NCBI GenBank assembly: GCA_016184005.1
Contig: JACPDL010000003.1
Span: 17,839 to 81,838, forward strand
Source of the DNA: Candidatus Aenigmatarchaeota archaeon
Lineage (GTDB): Archaea; Aenigmatarchaeota; Aenigmatarchaeia; GW2011-AR5
Length of the DNA stretch: 64,000 bases
Direction of reading: 5' to 3'
Of the stretch, positions 3,517-63,340 are shown piece by piece (the stretch's first letter is position 1; each line of letters begins with the position of its first letter). The translations under genes were made by a program, and so were the position numbers. The notes under the pieces were generated by a model, which was not told the DNA's origin, searched no databases, and was given only the letters and a program-made list of their open reading frames with translations.

Positions 3517-3616
3517 TTAGGAGAGAAGGTTGATACGTGCAAAGAGCAAAGCTCTTTGACGCGTCAGAGAACTTTCAGTTCTCTGCACGAGGAAGAGAAC
3601 CTAGGTTCTCGACTTA
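3517..3616 (+). repeat. Repeat family A, filled allele carrying a 54-nt twin-hairpin insert at 3536-3589
   Basis: Flanks join to the exact reverse complement of 28412-28456 and 52285-52330. Confidence 0.9.
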
Positions 3617-9561: not shown

Positions 9562-9740
9562 TATCCTCAGAGACATTGAAAACTGCTGTCTTTTCTGCAA
9601 AGGACTTTTAAGAAGTCCTTTGCAGAAATCCAGGAGAGCTTCGCTCTCCATGAATTAGACAGCAGATGAAACACAATGTCTCTGGGATCACATCTTCTCA
9701 CAAACCACCGACTTTAGTCGGTGGTATATTAAGAAGATAT
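9562..9740 (+). repeat. Repeat family B copy 3 with nested twin-hairpin insert at ~9593-9655
   Basis: acattg..ctgctgtct/agacagcag..caatgt stem and ccaccgactttagtcggtgg end hairpin, covarying with B1. Confidence 0.8.
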
Positions 9741-12898: not shown

Positions 12899-14542
12899 AT
12901 GACAAATTCTGAAGCCGATTTGATTAGAAAATACGTGCTGATAAACGCCACGGAGCACGCCGGCCAAGCCCAAACAAAGAGCGTTCTAGGCAAGCTGCTC
13001 GCTGACCAGCCCGACCTGCGGGCACGCGCGCTAGAACTGCGCCCGATGATTGAAGATACAGTTGAAGACGTGAACAGGCTTGGGCTTGCCAGGCAAAAAT
13101 CAGAACTGGACAAGCTTGGCGGTTACCAGCCGATAAAGCACCAGGAAAGAAAGGGCCTGCCGGAAATGGAAAGAGGCGACAGGTTCGTTGTCAGGTTCGC
13201 TCCAAACCCGGACGGGGCATTGCATCTGGGCAACGCACGGCCTGCGGTATTATGCGACGAGTATGCAAAAAAATACAAGGGAAAGTTGATATTGCGATTT
13301 GACGATACAGACCCGAAAGTAAAGGTGCCGGAAAAGAAATTCTATAAATGGATAAAAGATGACCTGAAATGGCTGGGTATAAAATGGCATGGAGAATATG
13401 TAGCCAGCAAACGCCTGAATATTTATTACAAATATGCAGAGGCTATGATAAAATCTTCTTCTGCTTATGTCTGCACATGCGGCGATGAATGGAAAGTTTT
13501 GCGCGACAAGTCAAAGGCCTGCTCCTGCAGATCGTTGGATAGCAGAAACCAGCTTCGCAGATGGAAAAGAATGTTCAAGGGATTCAAAGAAGGCGAAGCG
13601 GTTCTTCGCATCAAGACAGACTTGGAAGCCAAGAATCCCGCTGTTCGCGACTGGCCTGCTTTCAGGATAGTCGATGCACCCAGACATCCGCTGGTCAAAA
13701 AGAAACTGTGGCCCCTATACAATTTTGCTTCGGCAATAGACGATCATCTCCTTGGAGTGACCCATATTTTCCGCGGGCAGGAACATTCAACAAACGAAGT
13801 AAAACAGAGATTCCTTTACCAGCATCTTAGATGGGAATATCCGCAAGTCATCACGCTCGGCAGATTCTCTTTATCAGGCATGGTACTCAGCAAAAGCCAG
13901 ATAAGGGAAGGCATAGAAAGGCACATTTACAACGACTGGGATGATCTGCGGCTTGGAACGCTCAGGTCATTGAACAGGCGGGGCTTCCAGCCGGAAGCAT
14001 TGCGCCAGATAATAATCGAGATCGGGCCGAAACCCAGCGATTTAACTGTATCAATGGAAAACCTTGCTGCGTACAACAGGAAGCTGATAGACAAGACAGC
14101 AAACCGTTATTTCTTCATATCCGACCCCAAAAGAATTGAAGTGAAAGGCCTGAAACTCAAGCAGATAAAAATCCCCTTGCATCCCGAAGCAAAAAGAGGC
14201 TTCCGTTCTATCTCTATCGGGAAGACATTCTACATAGACACGAAGGACTTTGAAAACTGCAAGGGACTTGAAGTGCGGTTGAAGGACCTTTGCAATGTAA
14301 AGCTCGGGGAGAAATCAGAGTTTACAGGCTTTGAAGTCAAGCCGACGCCAAAAATACAGTGGGTGTCTGAGAAACATATTCAGGTAAAAGTAATAACGCC
14401 CGAGATTGAAATTAAAGGCTACGGAGAAACGGGCATTGCAAAGGAAAAGCCGGGATCGATACTGCAGTTTGAAAGATTCGGTTTTGTAAAGATAGAGAAA
14501 TCAGGCGGCAATATCGTGACAGCCGTCTGGTCTCATGAATGA
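12899..14542 (+). CDS. gltX: Glutamate--tRNA ligase
   Basis: RFAPNPDGALHLGN, RFDDTDP, LSKS, QFERFGF. Confidence 0.96.
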   Translation: MTNSEADLIRKYVLINATEHAGQAQTKSVLGKLLADQPDLRARALELRPMIEDTVEDVNRLGLARQKSELDKLGGYQPIKHQERKGLPEMERGDRFVVRFAPNPDGALHLGNARPAVLCDEYAKKYKGKLILRFDDTDPKVKVPEKKFYKWIKDDLKWLGIKWHGEYVASKRLNIYYKYAEAMIKSSSAYVCTCGDEWKVLRDKSKACSCRSLDSRNQLRRWKRMFKGFKEGEAVLRIKTDLEAKNPAVRDWPAFRIVDAPRHPLVKKKLWPLYNFASAIDDHLLGVTHIFRGQEHSTNEVKQRFLYQHLRWEYPQVITLGRFSLSGMVLSKSQIREGIERHIYNDWDDLRLGTLRSLNRRGFQPEALRQIIIEIGPKPSDLTVSMENLAAYNRKLIDKTANRYFFISDPKRIEVKGLKLKQIKIPLHPEAKRGFRSISIGKTFYIDTKDFENCKGLEVRLKDLCNVKLGEKSEFTGFEVKPTPKIQWVSEKHIQVKVITPEIEIKGYGETGIAKEKPGSILQFERFGFVKIEKSGGNIVTAVWSHE

Positions 14543-17500
14543 CGCCTGTATCTGTATTTTCTCAAAAAGCGCAGCTTTTTGGAATTCTCAAAATGCAGAG
14601 CATTTTGGAATCTCGAAAAAACTTTGTTTTTTCGAAGATCTCGGAGAAGCTTCGCTTCTCCCAAGATTACACCCTTCTGTTTTTTACGGATTTTTCTTTT
14701 AGGCTTCTTCTTTAGGCGGAAAAAGACCAGCATGCCCGCAAGAATCACGACCCCGGCAACAGCCAGGCTGGTAGGGGAAGCCGCAACAAGGCCTGTGGGA
14801 CCTATAACCCCTGTCTGGTTTTTTTCAGCGGCAGTTTCGTTTGCAAGCGCCTGGCTTGCAGGCATGACGTTTGTTTTGTTTGTTGCAGGTGCGCCGTTTC
14901 CTGTTATATTTGCTGCAGATTTATGTGCCACGTTTGGCGTTGCATTGCTTAATGATGCATTAGTGAGATTTGGTTTTGCCTGCGGTGCAGGTCTCGCGCC
15001 CCCTCCACCGCCCGAATAGCCGCCTCCGGAAGCGGAAGGACTTGGGCTTGCTGGCGGGGTAAAGGTGAAGGCTATTGTGTTCTTGATTTCATTTCCTGAT
15101 GTATCATTTGCATACAGCACCAGCGTATTCGAGCCCTGGGACGCTGTTATTGTGGTGTTCGTGCAGCCTATAAGTGAAACATTGGAATCGTTGTTAAGCC
15201 TGTACACGCATCCATCAGCGGCAATATTGTCACTGGCAGTGTAATTAAGCGGAATTGACGATGAAGCGTATGTTGTGGATGCGACAGGAGACGTTATAGT
15301 CACATTAGGCGCCTGCGTGTCATTGCCTGCCGCCGCACCCGAGAATGAGGGCAGATAAAGCACTGAGGCATTTGTTGTCATGTTGTAGCAGGGCTTGTTT
15401 GTGAAATCTGCATTGCATGCGCTTTCAATCCTTGTTATGTCAGGCGCGTCTCGTGTGCCATTGAGATAGAAGTAAATGGCATAAACCTGCGGGAATGTTA
15501 TTTTTGCCGCGTAGCTGTTTTCAGGCAGGGCGCCGTTCATGTCTACCCACGCAAGCGAACCGAAGACGCCGCCGCTTTGACTGAAGGCGGACGACACACT
15601 TCCGGCGCCCTCTATGTCGTCTGCTATGCCCATCATATTAGACAGGTTGAGGGCTGATAAATTGAAATCGACTATTTCTATAAGCGTGCCTGTGAGGTTG
15701 AACCTCAGCGTGTAATTCTTTGCGGCATCCAGCGCTGAAACGCTGATCTCATTATCCGTTTCGAGGAATGTCATCGTTATGTTCCTTGCGGAAAGGCTTG
15801 CACTCAGGGAACCGAAATAGGACGTTACATTCTCCCTTGCCTTTATGAAAACAAGCACTTCTTGCGTGGCATTGAAATTGCCGGCCAGGTCTGCCAAGTA
15901 GGCCTTCAGCGTATAATTTCCGTCGCTCAGGTCCAGCGTTTTTGCCCATTCTTTCCCGCCGCCCGACATGCTTTCGTTGACAAAGTTGAGCTCAAGGACG
16001 GCCGAGGAAAGAGGCTCGCTTGCCGTCATGTTTATTGTTATCCGGCTTGTTTCGTGCGTTGTTCCGTTCAAAGGCGTGGGAGAAACAAAGCCAGCATCCG
16101 GCGGTATGCGGTCTATTGATGCTGACATCATGAAAGAATTTGCAGTGTTGCCGGCGAGGTCTGTTGTTTCGAAGTAAAAGCTGATTGTAGTGTTGTGCTG
16201 CAATGAAGTGAGGTTTATAAGAATGCTGCAGTTCCTTGTTCCTGAAAGGCATGCCATGCTGGTATTTGTGAAGTTCTGCGCCGCCCCCCAATAGAGGTTT
16301 GCGCGTCGCAGGTGCATTTCGCTGTACGACAATGAAAAATTCTCATTCAGGCCCCGCATGAAGGTGTTGTTTGCCGGCGAGAGTGCCAGAATCACCGGAG
16401 GCCTTGTATCAAGCGTTATATTCAGCGTCTCAGTTGCCGTGTTGCCTGCAGAATCGTTTGCGTGGATCCTGTAGTTATAAGTCCCGTCATCAGCTGTCTT
16501 GTTGGCGGTGCATGACACCAATGTCCCGTTGTTCAGTTTCACCATCGTCTGGTTTGTCCCGTTCCATTCCAGGATGCAGGCAGAAATGTTTGTTAAGTCC
16601 GAAACACTCACATTGATAAAAATGTAGTTTCTGCTGACAAAAGAATTGTTTACATCTGCTGAAACAATGCTTATAGTTGGTTTTACTGTGTCAATTGTGA
16701 AAATGACTGTTTGCGATGTTGCGTTATTCCTGCTCTGATCGCTGCATGTTACATTAAGCGGATAAGTTCCGTCAGATAGGTTGAGAATATATGAATTTTG
16801 AACCCCAGATGTTGCATTGCCTAAATTTATTTTAGTGCCATTAAGGTTGCGCGAGCATTCCTGCTCTAGATTAAGATCGTCAATAGCTGTAAAGTTGACG
16901 ATTATGTTGTTTTTGTTCAGGAAACTATTGTTAACAGGCCCTGTCAAGTCGACCGATGGAGAAATATTGTCGACGAACTTGTCAGATAGCGTGAAACTTG
17001 AGGTGATGTTATAAGCTGTATTCGCTGAAAGGCTTGATGGAACAAGCCTTGCGGTCCACATTCCAGCCGAGGCGTTAATTGAAACATTGATATGATTAGT
17101 TCGACTCGTGGAAAAAACAGAATTTCCTGAAGTGTTGTAGAGGCCCAACTGAATTGATGCATTGTCAATCCAGCCAATACTCATGCTCAGGAGCGAGTTG
17201 TTTGTTGTATTAATTCTATAATAAGAAATGCCTCCTAAAGTGTTGTTTGTGAAAAACACCTCGCCGAAAGGCAAGAAATTCGAAGCTATTGAATACTTTG
17301 CACTTCCACTTACGGTTGTTGGCAGGACCAATATGTTCCAGTAACCACTTACAGGGTTGGTGACTTTTATCATTTCTTCTGTTTGCAGCACAGAAGCCGA
17401 TGATTTTACAATAGCGCCTGATGGATCCAGAAGTTGTAAGTCGAGATTCTGGTGCACTGAGTAATTCTCAGACCAGTAAACTGTTGCGCGTATTTCTGAA

Positions 17501-18774
17501 GAATTTACCGGCACGAAAATGCTGTGGATTTTGCCAATGTTTGATATGGTTCCTGATATCGTGTTGTTTATCTCGCCGAAAATCCGCGAAACATCTATCC
17601 TTCCAGCACCTTTGTCGCTTGTCTTCGAAAAATTCCCGTTGAGATCAAGAGCAGAGTTCATCATTATCGCCTTGACTTCTGCAGGGGTAAGATTGTCCCT
17701 AGCTTGCAGCATTAAAGCGGCTATACCTGCAATATGGGGCGTAGACATGCTGGTGCCGCTTTTCTGCACGAAATCGTCCTGGGTTTCCCACCTGCTGTTT
17801 GCAGAGGCTATCGGGTTGCCGGGGGCGAGAACATCGGGCTTTATCCTGCTGTCGTCTGTGGGTCCCCTGCTCGAGAAACCGCTGACGGCATCCCGTGTTG
17901 TGCTGCCTTTTCCCGTGTCCGTGGAACCGACAGTTATGACCTTGTGCGCCAGTCCGGGCGAGCAGATGGAAAATGAGTTGCCTGTTGAATCAATTGTCCT
18001 GCAATTATCTTCACCGCTAGGTCCGCTATTACCAGCAGCTACAGTCACAACCTTGCCTTTGTCTGCTATATTGTCAAGATAAGATGAAAGCACGTCGCTC
18101 CCGTCAGCAGGAATCTCACGCCCGCCTAAACTCAGTGTAAGTATGTGCGCCCCGTTGTCAACGCACCAGTCTACGCCGCGTAATATATCCGTATCTAAGC
18201 AGCGTCCAGCGTCGTCGCACACCTTTGCGTTCAGTATGCCTGCGCCGAAAGCCACGCCGCGGAAAACAGCGTCATTTCCGGCAGCTATTCCAGCCACATG
18301 CGTGCCGTGGCCGTAGATGTCCTGCGGGTTGCCGCCGCCCGTAAAGTCGGCTTCGTTCACGACCCTGTCTGCAAGCGACGGGTGCGTTTTATCCACGCCA
18401 GTATCAAGAACGCATATCCTTATGCCTGAACCGTTGTAGCCTGTACCCCACGCCGTTGATGCATTTATTATTGGAACAGATACATCGAGCAGTATCTTCT
18501 TTTCCCCGTTGGCCCATACCTTCTCGACAACAGGATCATTTTCAAGGGCATTAAGCATGCTTTTCCTTATTCTGGCTGTGTAAAAATTTGTTTGCCTGAA
18601 CTGTTTGACGTTCTCAGCGCCCTCAATATTGTAGTTATCGTCCGCCTTGACGATTACTGTAACCTTGTCATCCTGTGACTCGTATAACGCGGGGTCTATT
18701 TTTTGAGTACTGGCCGAATAGGACAAAGCAGCAAGTAATAGAAACAGGCATAAAAATGCGGCTAATATTCTCAT
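14533..18774 (-). CDS. Secreted, membrane-anchored S8 subtilisin-like protease with Ig-like repeats
   Basis: Signal peptide; LDTG, HGTHVAG, GTSMSTPH triad; many N-x-S/T sites; C-terminal TM. Confidence 0.93.
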   Translation of the reverse strand: MRILAAFLCLFLLLAALSYSASTQKIDPALYESQDDKVTVIVKADDNYNIEGAENVKQFRQTNFYTARIRKSMLNALENDPVVEKVWANGEKKILLDVSVPIINASTAWGTGYNGSGIRICVLDTGVDKTHPSLADRVVNEADFTGGGNPQDIYGHGTHVAGIAAGNDAVFRGVAFGAGILNAKVCDDAGRCLDTDILRGVDWCVDNGAHILTLSLGGREIPADGSDVLSSYLDNIADKGKVVTVAAGNSGPSGEDNCRTIDSTGNSFSICSPGLAHKVITVGSTDTGKGSTTRDAVSGFSSRGPTDDSRIKPDVLAPGNPIASANSRWETQDDFVQKSGTSMSTPHIAGIAALMLQARDNLTPAEVKAIMMNSALDLNGNFSKTSDKGAGRIDVSRIFGEINNTISGTISNIGKIHSIFVPVNSSEIRATVYWSENYSVHQNLDLQLLDPSGAIVKSSASVLQTEEMIKVTNPVSGYWNILVLPTTVSGSAKYSIASNFLPFGEVFFTNNTLGGISYYRINTTNNSLLSMSIGWIDNASIQLGLYNTSGNSVFSTSRTNHINVSINASAGMWTARLVPSSLSANTAYNITSSFTLSDKFVDNISPSVDLTGPVNNSFLNKNNIIVNFTAIDDLNLEQECSRNLNGTKINLGNATSGVQNSYILNLSDGTYPLNVTCSDQSRNNATSQTVIFTIDTVKPTISIVSADVNNSFVSRNYIFINVSVSDLTNISACILEWNGTNQTMVKLNNGTLVSCTANKTADDGTYNYRIHANDSAGNTATETLNITLDTRPPVILALSPANNTFMRGLNENFSLSYSEMHLRRANLYWGAAQNFTNTSMACLSGTRNCSILINLTSLQHNTTISFYFETTDLAGNTANSFMMSASIDRIPPDAGFVSPTPLNGTTHETSRITINMTASEPLSSAVLELNFVNESMSGGGKEWAKTLDLSDGNYTLKAYLADLAGNFNATQEVLVFIKARENVTSYFGSLSASLSARNITMTFLETDNEISVSALDAAKNYTLRFNLTGTLIEIVDFNLSALNLSNMMGIADDIEGAGSVSSAFSQSGGVFGSLAWVDMNGALPENSYAAKITFPQVYAIYFYLNGTRDAPDITRIESACNADFTNKPCYNMTTNASVLYLPSFSGAAAGNDTQAPNVTITSPVASTTYASSSIPLNYTASDNIAADGCVYRLNNDSNVSLIGCTNTTITASQGSNTLVLYANDTSGNEIKNTIAFTFTPPASPSPSASGGGYSGGGGGARPAPQAKPNLTNASLSNATPNVAHKSAANITGNGAPATNKTNVMPASQALANETAAEKNQTGVIGPTGLVAASPTSLAVAGVVILAGMLVFFRLKKKPKRKIRKKQKGVILGEAKLLRDLRKNKVFSRFQNALHFENSKKLRFLRKYRYRRHS
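14559..14666 (+). mobile_element. Family D element, 108 nt (one 54-nt twin hairpin nested in another), in frame in the protease tail
   Basis: Four triloop hairpins; outer pair identical to 24664-24717. Confidence 0.85.
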
Positions 18775-24449: not shown

Positions 24450-24815
24450 ATGCCAACAGCAGGTCAGCTTGGACTTAGAAAAGGTGATGTTGTCCGTCTC
24501 GCTACAGTCTACAAAGAATTTGCCGCTTCAGATTTAGCAGGTAATCCGTATTCTGTCAGAAGACTGATGGGCCTTGACATGACCGGAGGGCCAAGGGTTG
24601 AAGTCATAGAAACTCATGTTCGTCATCCAAGCGCTAAAGGATTCTATACTAGAGTTATGTATATTCTCAAAAAGCGCAGCTTTTTGGAATCTCGGAGAAG
24701 CTTCGCTTCTCCCAAGATAGATGACGACCCATATTCAGGAACATTATCAGAAGAGTTGGGATATATCTGGGAAAGGTTTGAAGGTTTCGTGGGACCTGTA
24801 GAAAGATTAAAGTGA
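24450..24815 (+). CDS. Hypothetical protein containing an in-frame 54-nt palindromic insert
   Basis: ORF stays open through 24664-24717. Confidence 0.65.
   Translation: MPTAGQLGLRKGDVVRLATVYKEFAASDLAGNPYSVRRLMGLDMTGGPRVEVIETHVRHPSAKGFYTRVMYILKKRSFLESRRSFASPKIDDDPYSGTLSEELGYIWERFEGFVGPVERLK
24664..24717 (+). mobile_element. Family D 54-nt twin-hairpin unit
   Basis: ttctcaaaaagc-GCA-gctttttggaa + tctcggagaagc-TTC-gcttctcccaaga. Confidence 0.88.
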
Positions 24816-25447: not shown

Positions 25448-25555
25448 TCTTGGGAGAAGCTTCGCTTCTCCGAGATCTTCGGAGAAACTGAGTTTCTCCG
25501 AGATTCCGAAATCCTTTGGATTTCGAGAATTCCAAAAAGCTGCGCTTTTTGAGAA
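25448..25555 (-). mobile_element. Family D element, 108 nt, intergenic between spt4 and rps24e
   Basis: Reverse-orientation homologue of 14559-14666 with compensatory stem changes. Confidence 0.88.
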
Positions 25556-41058: not shown

Positions 41059-41125
41059 TTGCTGTAATGCAAAGTAGTCTTCAGAAAGGTGAAATCACTG
41101 GAAGGAAGTTATAGCGATTTTTGCA

Positions 41126-41180
41126 TCTGCAAAGAAGCAAAGCTTCTTTGAGACTCTGAAAAGCTTTGCTTTTCAGGAGA
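41126..41180 (+). mobile_element. Solo ~54-nt twin-hairpin unit
   Basis: caaagaagc-AAA-gcttctttg agact ctgaaaagc-TTT-gcttttcag. Confidence 0.8.
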
Positions 41181-41246
41181 ATAGCGGTAACTATATATAT
41201 CAGGCAGCGACAAAAACAAAATAGAATTTTTGATGAGGTGAAATCC

Positions 41247-49441: not shown

Positions 49442-49807
49442 ATGGGCTTGGTTCACATATTCGGAGAAAAACCTGTACCGAAGGTTCTGGATTTCTTTAG
49501 GGTTCATTCTTACTGGGATTATTCACTTAAAGATCTGTCGAAAGCTACAAAGATAAGCCACAGAACTTTGCAGCAGATAATCCCGCAACTTGTTAAGCAT
49601 GGTTTTCTGAAATACACAAGAACAGAAGGAAAAGCGAAAATGTTTATTTTTAATAAAGAATCAAAAATAGCCAAAGAACTGCACGAATTTGCTCGAACAA
49701 TAGATTTTGAGTTTTTATCTACAGACCATAAAAAAAAGCAGCACTCGCCTGAGATTGCCTTTGATCTTGGGAGAAGCGAAGCTTCTCAGAGATTCCAAAA
49801 AGCGTAG
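49442..49807 (+). CDS. HTH protein whose stop codon is supplied by a palindromic insert
   Basis: KVLDFF...DYS...LSKAT.IS..TL; last 13 codons lie in the D element. Confidence 0.75.
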   Translation: MGLVHIFGEKPVPKVLDFFRVHSYWDYSLKDLSKATKISHRTLQQIIPQLVKHGFLKYTRTEGKAKMFIFNKESKIAKELHEFARTIDFEFLSTDHKKKQHSPEIAFDLGRSEASQRFQKA

Positions 49808-49818
49808 CTTTTTGAGAA
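49765..49818 (-). mobile_element. Family D 54-nt twin-hairpin unit
   Basis: Reverse homologue of 24664-24717. Confidence 0.88.
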
Positions 49819-53738: not shown

Positions 53739-53894
53739 TAGGAAAGAGGTGTAGAGAGGAGATCTGCAAAGAACATAGTTCTTCTTGCAGAAACCTTTGG
53801 TTTCTGAAGACTCAGGAAAGCTTTGCTTTCCTCGAGTTGAGACCTCAGAGAACTTTTAGTTCTCTGCAGAAAACCCTAGGTTTTCTCCTTCTTA
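53739..53894 (+). mobile_element. Three-level nest: A-like hairpin > 54-nt unit > 54-nt unit
   Basis: Removing 53783-53836 and then the rest of 53763-53870 restores a perfect hairpin at each step. Confidence 0.82.
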
Positions 53895-63196: not shown

Positions 63197-63340
63197 TATC
63201 CGCAACATTGTTACATAAACAATGTTGGGATGACACCTTGCAGAACAAAGTTCTGCGAGGTCTCGAAGAGCTTTGCTCTTCGAGGATGCTCTCAGAATCC
63301 CACGATTGAAGTCGCGGGAGTATTAAGAGCATATCATTTA
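63197..63340 (+). repeat. Repeat family B copy 2 with a 51-nt twin-hairpin insert at 63236-63286
   Basis: Reverse complement of 3740-3862 apart from different inserts and a few substitutions. Confidence 0.88.

Follow-up and report, generated by a model that had tools for sequence, protein, structure and literature searches.

How does a stretch of DNA built of hairpins come to lie inside the reading frame of a protein, and what becomes of the protein that carries it? The question is raised by the gene for an S8 (subtilase) protease in a 64,000-nt stretch of a Candidatus Aenigmatarchaeota archaeon genome (assembly GCA_016184005.1, contig JACPDL010000003.1, forward-strand positions 17,839 to 81,838), which we call the window and whose numbering we use unless a contig is named. 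The original prediction held that a 108-nt palindromic element is translated in frame in the tail of this protease, and both the sequence and the coordinates of that element were borne out. We compared the source genome (G000, 919 kb, labelled as groundwater in the sequencing-run labels) with a congener (G001, of which 676 kb were fetched), with other relatives, and with contigs from further sequencing runs. We consider it likely that the locus records a recent, precise, in-frame insertion of a nested mobile hairpin cassette, the encoded peptide being a tolerated by-product.

The element, at 14559-14666, comprises four perfect hairpins placed end to end. Every module follows one plan: first TCTC, then a 7-10-bp stem whose two complementary strands are separated by a 3-nt loop, and finally GGAA or GAAGA. 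The basic unit is 54 nt long, consisting of two hairpins of ~27 nt, with TTCTC at its 5´ end and (C/G)AAGA at its 3´ end. In the protease sense, the RNA of 14545-14680 is predicted to fold into the four hairpins at -45.6 kcal/mol (z-score -4.53), and 0 of 200 dinucleotide shuffles were equally stable. An Rfam search of the element gave nothing above the gathering score, with two sub-threshold chance matches (SSRC10, 21.4 bits versus 56).

The protease has a signal-like N-terminal segment, Ig-like domains, a hydrophobic C-terminal anchor and a basic tail. Pfam recognizes Peptidase_S8 (E 7e-57, residues 115-386) as well as Big_13 and Big_7, and DTG, HGT and GTS motifs are found in the sequence. 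As had been proposed, the 36 element-derived codons follow the membrane anchor, which we identified by reading the sequence, and the basic segment behind it; the residues they encode include 10 K+R and 3 D+E. A true stop codon ahead of the element had been named as a circumstance that would speak against translation, and the translated open reading frame (ORF) contains no stop upstream of the element. Since the cassette amounts to 36 codons without a stop in the protease frame, the native stop codon of the gene is retained. This stop lies in the 10 nt that the protease ORF shares with the 3´ end of the convergent glutamyl-tRNA synthetase gene.

The empty allele of the protease gene

G001 encodes an orthologue with 69% identity over residues 4-477 of a 521-aa query, and the match ends where the element peptide starts. 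The C-terminus of this orthologue reads ...KIRKKQKGAKYRYRRHS (in shorter excerpts, KKQKGAKYRYRRHS and KQKGAKYRYRRHS*). The original prediction had reasoned that removing the element would leave a plausible tail, and the G001 tail, KKQKGAKYRYRRHS*, is the very tail it foresaw, here in a natural empty allele. At the DNA level, the empty site CTGTACT/TTGCACCC corresponds to the filled site CTGTATT[108 nt]TTACACCC. The two sites differ by exactly +108 nt, the target is not duplicated, and two substitutions stand beside the junction. A more distant orthologue, that of G005 (43% identity), ends soon after its own hydrophobic segment and has an unrelated tail. The peptide is thus absent from the G001 and G005 orthologues alike, whereas the original prediction would have been in difficulty had distant orthologues carried it.

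Both alleles were also found in metagenomic assemblies. In runs X7, X8 and X11, which come from three other studies, one contig each brings 14560 and 14670 together, separated by one G; these contigs represent the G001-type empty allele in a strain diverged by a few percent. In run X3, which contains the same strain as G000 but comes from another study, contigs enter the element from both flanks and no contig skips it; in one, the left flank continues into 26 nt of H1, the first hairpin, and in another the right flank continues into 27 nt of H4, the last hairpin. The nearest sibling copy in G000, at C4:249651, is 98% identical to the protease copy, and its site is likewise empty in G001. Filled and empty alleles occur naturally in two congeners and several metagenomes, and they therefore give a direct view of the event, of its exact borders and of what it does to the protein. 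The protease copy is a precise, frame-preserving insertion, and this insertion is probably recent, later than the split from G001. The features of the locus are collected in Table 1.

Table 1. Features of the protease locus and further family copies in the window
Feature	Position	Strand	Basis or remark
Four-hairpin mobile cassette, outer H1..H4 around inner H2a-H3a	14559..14666	.	Sequence, fold, module grammar
H1, left arm of outer 54-nt unit	14559..14584	.	Stem CAAAAAGC/GCTTTTTG
Inner 54-nt unit, subtype a	14585..14638	.	Exactly at GGAA/TCTC junction of outer unit
H2a, first hairpin of inner unit	14585..14610	.	54-nt copies and module grammar
H3a, second hairpin of inner unit	14611..14638	.	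54-nt copies and module grammar
H4, right arm of outer unit	14639..14666	.	Stem GGAGAAGC/GCTTCTCC, terminal CAAGA
S8 (subtilase) protease gene, 1413 aa	14533..18774	-	ORF and Pfam
C-terminal hydrophobic anchor SLAVAGVVILAGMLVFF, residues 1336-1352	14719..14769	-	Read from the sequence, without a dedicated transmembrane predictor
Native basic tail RLKKKPKRKIRKKQKGV, residues 1353-1369	14668..14718	-	Also conserved in G001 orthologue
36 element-derived codons, residues 1370-1405, ILGEAK...RFLR	14560..14667	-	ORF translation
Final 8 native codons, KYRYRRHS	14536..14559	-	Stop at 14533-14535, common to the empty allele
Convergent glutamyl-tRNA synthetase (GluRS) gene	12899..14542	+	ORF and Pfam
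Family copy, 54-nt H1-H4 unit	24664-24717		
Family copy, 54-nt H1-H4 unit	49765-49818		
Family copy, 108-nt b-type (C4:43286)	25448-25555		Reverse orientation

A mobile family of nested hairpin cassettes

The 108-nt element is a member of a mobile repeat family. In G000, 11 matches span all 108 nt, the protease copy included, and many more cover 54 nt or part of the element. With H1 and H4 as anchors, we collected 27 bounded elements in G000 and 30 in G001. Of these 57 copies, 34 had a left and a right flank that could each be located in the other genome. Exact empty sites (gap 0) were found for 17 of the placed copies and sites within 3 nt for another 3, while 14 had other sequence of 37-288 nt at the corresponding position. 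The exact empty sites run in both directions, 8 being filled in G000 and 9 in G001, and all 17 clean pairs differ by exactly +54 or +108 nt, with a junction ambiguity of at most one A. In an unbiased compilation of 100 indels between G000 and G001, each of at least 20 nt, the same two lengths stand out as peaks, with 9 events at 54 nt and 6 at 108 nt.

The target is loosely defined. The empty-site junction is A/T in 10 of the 17 cases, and 8 of the 17 have SAANA on the left, which resembles the right end of the element, CAAGA; the protease site, TACT/TTGC, fits neither pattern. Within the 3 nt beside the junction, the two alleles mismatch at 16 of 102 positions, compared with 67 of 1156 further out (about threefold, Fisher p 6e-4). 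Four sites have an empty allele ending in AAGA, and there the two bases that precede the junction are different in the filled allele.

Members of the family are present in 11 of the 31 genomes searched among relatives, G000 counted, with 35 matches in G001, 9 in G020 (from a different family-level lineage) and 7 in G028. In G020 the layout of four hairpins is retained, with stems that are different yet complementary. When the 11 full copies from G000 were aligned, 5 of the 42 predicted base pairs showed compensatory changes, indicating that structure is what is kept. The loops vary freely and are sometimes reverse-complemented (TTC versus GAA). Such inversions occur on unchanged stems, both in the H4 loop (TTC versus GAA) and in the H1 core (GCTACGC versus GCGTAGC), and a module apparently flips on its own, without inversion of the entire element.

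The arrangement H1[H2 H3]H4, one 54-nt unit inside another, had been read from the protease copy, and the family supports it. The outer unit H1-H4 occurs alone in 15 copies in G000 and 9 in G001. It encloses the b-type inner unit, H1-H2b-H3b-H4, in 8 and 11 copies, respectively, and the a-type, H1-H2a-H3a-H4, in 2 and 0, these two being the protease copy and C4:249651. The same H2b-H3b unit is also enclosed by a second, different shell, X1..X4: X1-X4 alone is found 3 times in G000 and once in G001, X1-H2b-H3b-X4 in 0 and 3 copies, and H2b-H3b alone in 0 and 1. A third unit, Y1-Y2, sits within either shell, as H1-Y1-Y2-H4 (1 copy), H1-H2b-Y1-Y2-H4 (2 copies) and X1-H2b-Y1-Y2-H3b-X4 (1 copy), all in G000 and none in G001. 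One orthologous site holds 110 nt (H1-H2b-H3b-H4) in G000 and 54 nt (H1-H4) in G001. The recurrence of one inner unit in two shells, always in nested order, is consistent with repeated insertion at the central GGAA/TCTC junction. Single modules can also be lost, as in the pair C5:97704 and L057 (108 versus 80 nt), and therefore slippage between similar modules contributes too. The family thus combines modularity with nesting.

One nest, at C4:104428-104590 in G000, has 162 nt and six hairpins in three levels (X4-H3b-Y2-Y1-H2b-H1). It lies open in frame midway in a 514-aa membrane-protein-like ORF with no Pfam match (C4:103772-105316), which may represent a single gene or a fusion of two genes created by the element.

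Coding compatibility and rival explanations

To score the relation of the family to genes, each element was deleted in silico and the restored site was examined for an ORF of at least 150 aa. Fourteen of the 57 copies lie in such ORFs, and 13 of these 14 ORFs are open through the element. The exception, the reverse-oriented copy at 25448-25555, introduces a stop into a 193-aa ORF, 34 codons before the end of that ORF. Elements are positioned within ORFs in 25% of cases versus 77% for random genomic positions (binomial p about 1e-16), and deep inside ORFs in 9% versus 55% (binomial p about 3e-13). Given this strong depletion, the family must be kept out of gene interiors or purged from them. 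Element copies are stop-poor. Those of 108 nt have on average 3.7 open frames of 6, compared with 0.66 for composition-matched shuffles, 0.74 for random palindromic modules and 1.96 for genomic windows; for 54-nt copies the means are 4.75, 2.18, 2.4 and 3.18 in the same order. In the protease element, four of the six frames are open, namely all three on the plus strand and the one on the minus strand that the protease uses.

Copies that do lie in genes are found in varied protein contexts. In G001, one is inserted in frame in the central loop of an MFS_1 transporter, one splits a DNA_alkylation domain in frame into two Pfam stretches at a site that is empty in G000, and one lies in a VTT-domain membrane protein; in G000, another lies in a PKD-repeat protein. 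The sibling at C4:249651 lies near the end of the gene for another anchored surface protein, with three codons left before the stop, and is read on the opposite strand. A double hairpin of the X1-X4 type (54-58 nt, C4:153619-153676) is found in FtsY (C4:152544-153959), where it contributes residues 95-114 in frame within the acidic N-terminal linker, upstream of the SRP54_N and SRP54 domains.

Across hosts, at least three different frames of the element are in use. In a peptide search of longer proteins with a 44-aa stretch that includes the element, three of the seven candidates were the protease itself and small ORFs of 85 and 131 aa. Because hosts use at least three frames and the peptide is almost without database relatives, we regard it as a by-product rather than a conserved domain. 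Most likely, the 36-residue peptide is a tolerated by-product without a function of its own, and the protease element is very probably translated, as judged from the open frame, and harmless. Translation, neutrality and the cytoplasmic topology of the tail are what we infer for this protein.

We suggest the following course of events. A non-autonomous cassette built of hairpins may have arisen when a second 54-nt unit entered a first at the GGAA/TCTC junction. After the split of the two congeners, this cassette would have entered the S8 protease gene precisely, within its ninth-last codon, and without duplicating the target. The presumed cytoplasmic tail of the protein would thereby have become longer by 36 mostly basic residues, while the native stop was retained.

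Several observations weigh against this account. The direction of the event, insertion in G000 or loss in G001, is read without an outgroup, with an unrelated tail in G005 and G001-like alleles in X7, X8 and X11. The empty junction of the protease is T/T rather than the usual A/T, and is flanked by two substitutions. Neither H1 nor H4 resembles the hairpins (CCACCG..CGGTGG) at the ends of the resident Y1 transposase elements. Runs of T in the element on the protease-sense strand (T6, T4 and T5) could, through archaeal termination, stop some transcripts before the stop codon is reached. Among the five deep-internal copies, one host ORF, L072, is without Pfam support and may be spurious; all five copies are open, but the chance of this is ~0.6 per copy and the result was not counted as significant. 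Frame preservation was accordingly rejected as proof of translation.

Of the other explanations, the one that survives best, though we hold it to be unlikely, is that the element serves as a bidirectional terminator or insulator of hairpins and T runs between the convergent GluRS and protease genes, with little full-length tail being made. The position would suit this role: the element begins 16 nt past the GluRS stop, T4-T6 runs come after every hairpin on the two strands, and 43 of the 57 family copies lie outside long ORFs. However, T6 and T5 runs are already present downstream of GluRS in the empty allele, and therefore no added terminator is needed. Copies also persist deep in genes, such as those for the MFS and DNA_alkylation proteins, where a terminator would do harm, and a scan of 14300-14900 for bacterial-type promoters and terminators, which does not model archaeal signals, returned 0 sites of either.

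A slightly less probable reading is that the element is ancestral and was precisely excised in the G001 lineage, which would make the tail peptide old rather than a recent gain. The G005 orthologue, with its short unrelated tail, is uninformative as an outgroup, the family loses modules cleanly, as at C5:97704 and L057 (108 versus 80 nt), and the mismatches clustered at junctions (16/102 versus 67/1156) could be excision footprints. Loss fits poorly with the 98% identity between the protease copy and a sibling that G001 also lacks, whereas the flanks differ by 3-6%. It also fits poorly with the rarity of the a-type inner unit, of which G000 has only two full copies and the 676 kb fetched from G001 has none, and with the exact length kept at 17 of 17 empty sites.

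It is also improbable, and somewhat more so, that the tail is translated only to be cut off by an archaeosortase-like enzyme, with the hydrophobic segment and the basic tail acting as a sorting signal. G000 does encode an Exosortase_EpsH-family protein (C2:40945-41409, 39.7 bits versus a cut-off of 25.7), and both a-type copies lie in C-terminal tails of anchored surface proteins. Against this, no C-terminal sorting-signal model scored above its cut-off for the protease (the best, LPXTG_anchor, had 12.7 versus 15.9 bits), and no PGF-like motif precedes the hydrophobic segment. Apart from the fate of the element, the exosortase gene raises the possibility that C-terminal anchors of surface proteins, that of the protease included, might be processed.

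We give very little weight to excision of the cassette from the mRNA by a mechanism of the splicing-endonuclease intron type, which would leave the protein unchanged. This idea draws on a related H1-like hairpin inside the intron of tRNA-Val(TAC) (C5:89666-89802), but the minimum-free-energy and centroid folds, in place of a dedicated search for bulge-helix-bulge motifs, show no 3-nt bulges around a 4-bp helix at the borders. Moreover, copies are purged from gene interiors and poor in stops, neither of which a spliced element needs, and the unit lengths are multiples of three. Finally, misplacement of a repeat at the protease junction during assembly is hardly credible: short-read contigs do break at the repeat and no single contig of run X3 spans it, but contigs of this independent run reach from the flanks into H1 and H4, and the insertion is exactly 108 nt and preserves the frame.

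Mobility, known systems and the wider hairpin population

The best lead for what moves the cassette is a Y1 (IS200/IS605-type) single-strand transposase acting in trans. Y1_Tnp fragments were found at three G000 contig ends and three full copies in G001, and Y1_Tnp is present in 4 of 4 genomes with at least 7 element matches versus 3 of 27 others, these relatives not being independent. The resident Y1 transposase itself was rejected as the demonstrated mobiliser, given how its element's end hairpins differ from H1 and H4, and it is kept as a lead only. A separate point concerns the G000 assembly, in which 6 of 10 contig ends stop inside one IS200/IS605-type element. The C2 5´, C3 3´ and C4 3´ ends hold a Y1_Tnp C-terminal fragment with the CCACCG..CGGTGG hairpin, and the 5´ ends of C1, C3 and C5 share the opposite end of the insertion sequence (IS). 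Because six ends fall inside the same element, the assembly gaps can be read as collapsed IS copies.

To our knowledge, in-frame "selfish" palindromes are textbook material for Rickettsia and Wolbachia only, plus one archaeal report. Published accounts place in-frame palindromic repeats in Rickettsia, Wolbachia and Methanocaldococcus jannaschii (PMC2996958, PMC10969869). As these accounts describe them, Rickettsia palindromic elements (RPEs; Ogata et al. 2000/2002) are of ~100-150 bp, scattered in a small genome, with many in-frame copies in unrelated genes, typically in non-structured parts and with the gene surviving (PMC10969869, PMC2996958). Like RPEs, the archaeal cassette is a multicopy palindromic repeat, 108 nt long and with 11 full-length copies in the genome, that inserts in frame and leaves genes open (the protease, MFS_1 and DNA_alkylation genes; 13 of 14 in ORFs). 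Compared by description, it differs from RPEs in its archaeal host, in its 27-nt modules with recursive nesting in 54-nt steps, and in having no conserved peptide, at least three frames being read. The view in the original prediction that the modular, self-nesting form looks different from RPEs thus holds at the level of published descriptions. The palindromic coding repeats of M. jannaschii are described as stand-alone and in frame in genes (Suyama, Lathe and Bork 2005; PMC2996958), and on this one-line description the cassette resembles them as an archaeal palindromic repeat in frame in genes. That the cassette leaves no duplication is, again by description, a difference from the in-frame palindromes of Rickettsia, Wolbachia and M. 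jannaschii.

The "peel and paste" elements of IS200/IS605 and the ends-only PATEs are described as having end hairpins, no terminal inverted repeats and no target-site duplication (PMC7290912). The cassette likewise has hairpins at both ends, no terminal inverted repeats and no target-site duplication (17 of 17), and Y1 transposase genes are present in both G000 and G001. It seems to depart from the described systems in its loose target (A/T at 10 of 17, SAANA on the left at 8 of 17), and its 54-nt unit is far below the ~271-nt PATE-like example given there (PMC7290912); its H1 and H4 also differ from the CCACCG..CGGTGG carried by resident Y1 IS ends. Unlike a classical MITE (a miniature transposable element with inverted repeats), the cassette has ends that are not complementary (TTCTC.../...CAAGA), inverted repeats that are internal hairpins only, and no target-site duplication at the 17 clean filled/empty pairs. 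Short hairpin modules in varied mosaic orders, mostly intergenic and often near 3´ ends, are shared with REP/BIME sequences as described (PMC3733652, PMC3184786). REP/BIME palindromes are characterized there as extragenic, with a conserved GTAG or CGTC tag at the palindrome end (PMC3733652), whereas cassette modules begin with TCTC, have no such tag, are nested rather than alternating in order, and include in-frame copies within genes.

Our literature searches turned up no account of elements of this kind, whether in Aenigmarchaeota or in other DPANN archaea, the supplementary MITE lists of PMC11602168 lying outside the search; that study reports high MITE density in some DPANN genomes, and its lists might include relatives. 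With less confidence than we place in the protease insertion, and short of an even chance, we suggest that 54-nt double-hairpin cassettes form an undescribed minimal class of mobile elements in DPANN that move without duplication, insert into themselves (54, 108 and 162 nt), are tolerated by genes and yield translated peptides. If so, the cassettes would appear shaped for gene-dense reduced genomes, with 18-codon units, few stops and flipping loops, and would settle in the tails, loops and linkers of working proteins, supplying new peptide segments. The family illustrates how repeats that are frame-neutral, stop-poor and self-nesting persist in a 0.9-Mb genome with almost no spare DNA. If the peptides are made, reduced archaeal genomes could gain new protein tails and loops in this way. 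For annotation, such elements are a hazard, since they cause false extensions, false gene fusions and breaks in short-read assemblies. Taken singly, the protease copy is a modest event; as a view on the family it is a good one, the empty allele being known.

Hairpin cassettes form a much larger population, of which the H1-H4 family is a single branch. Across G000 there are 118 merged arrays of at least two perfect hairpins with a period of ~27 nt, and their stem families include CAGAGAAGC/CAGAAAGC, AAATCAAGC/CAAAGGATTT and AGGAAGAAC/GGTGAAAC among many others; examples in the window are at 3534-3591, 9586-9655, 41124-41182, 53782-53892 and 63197-63290. The 64-nt intron of tRNA-Val(TAC) consists of an H1-like hairpin (TCCTCAAAAAGC..GCTTTTTGGGA) and a second hairpin, which links the cassettes to tRNA introns. 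In all, 17 intron-bearing tRNA predictions were listed, several of them with introns of 50-140 nt.

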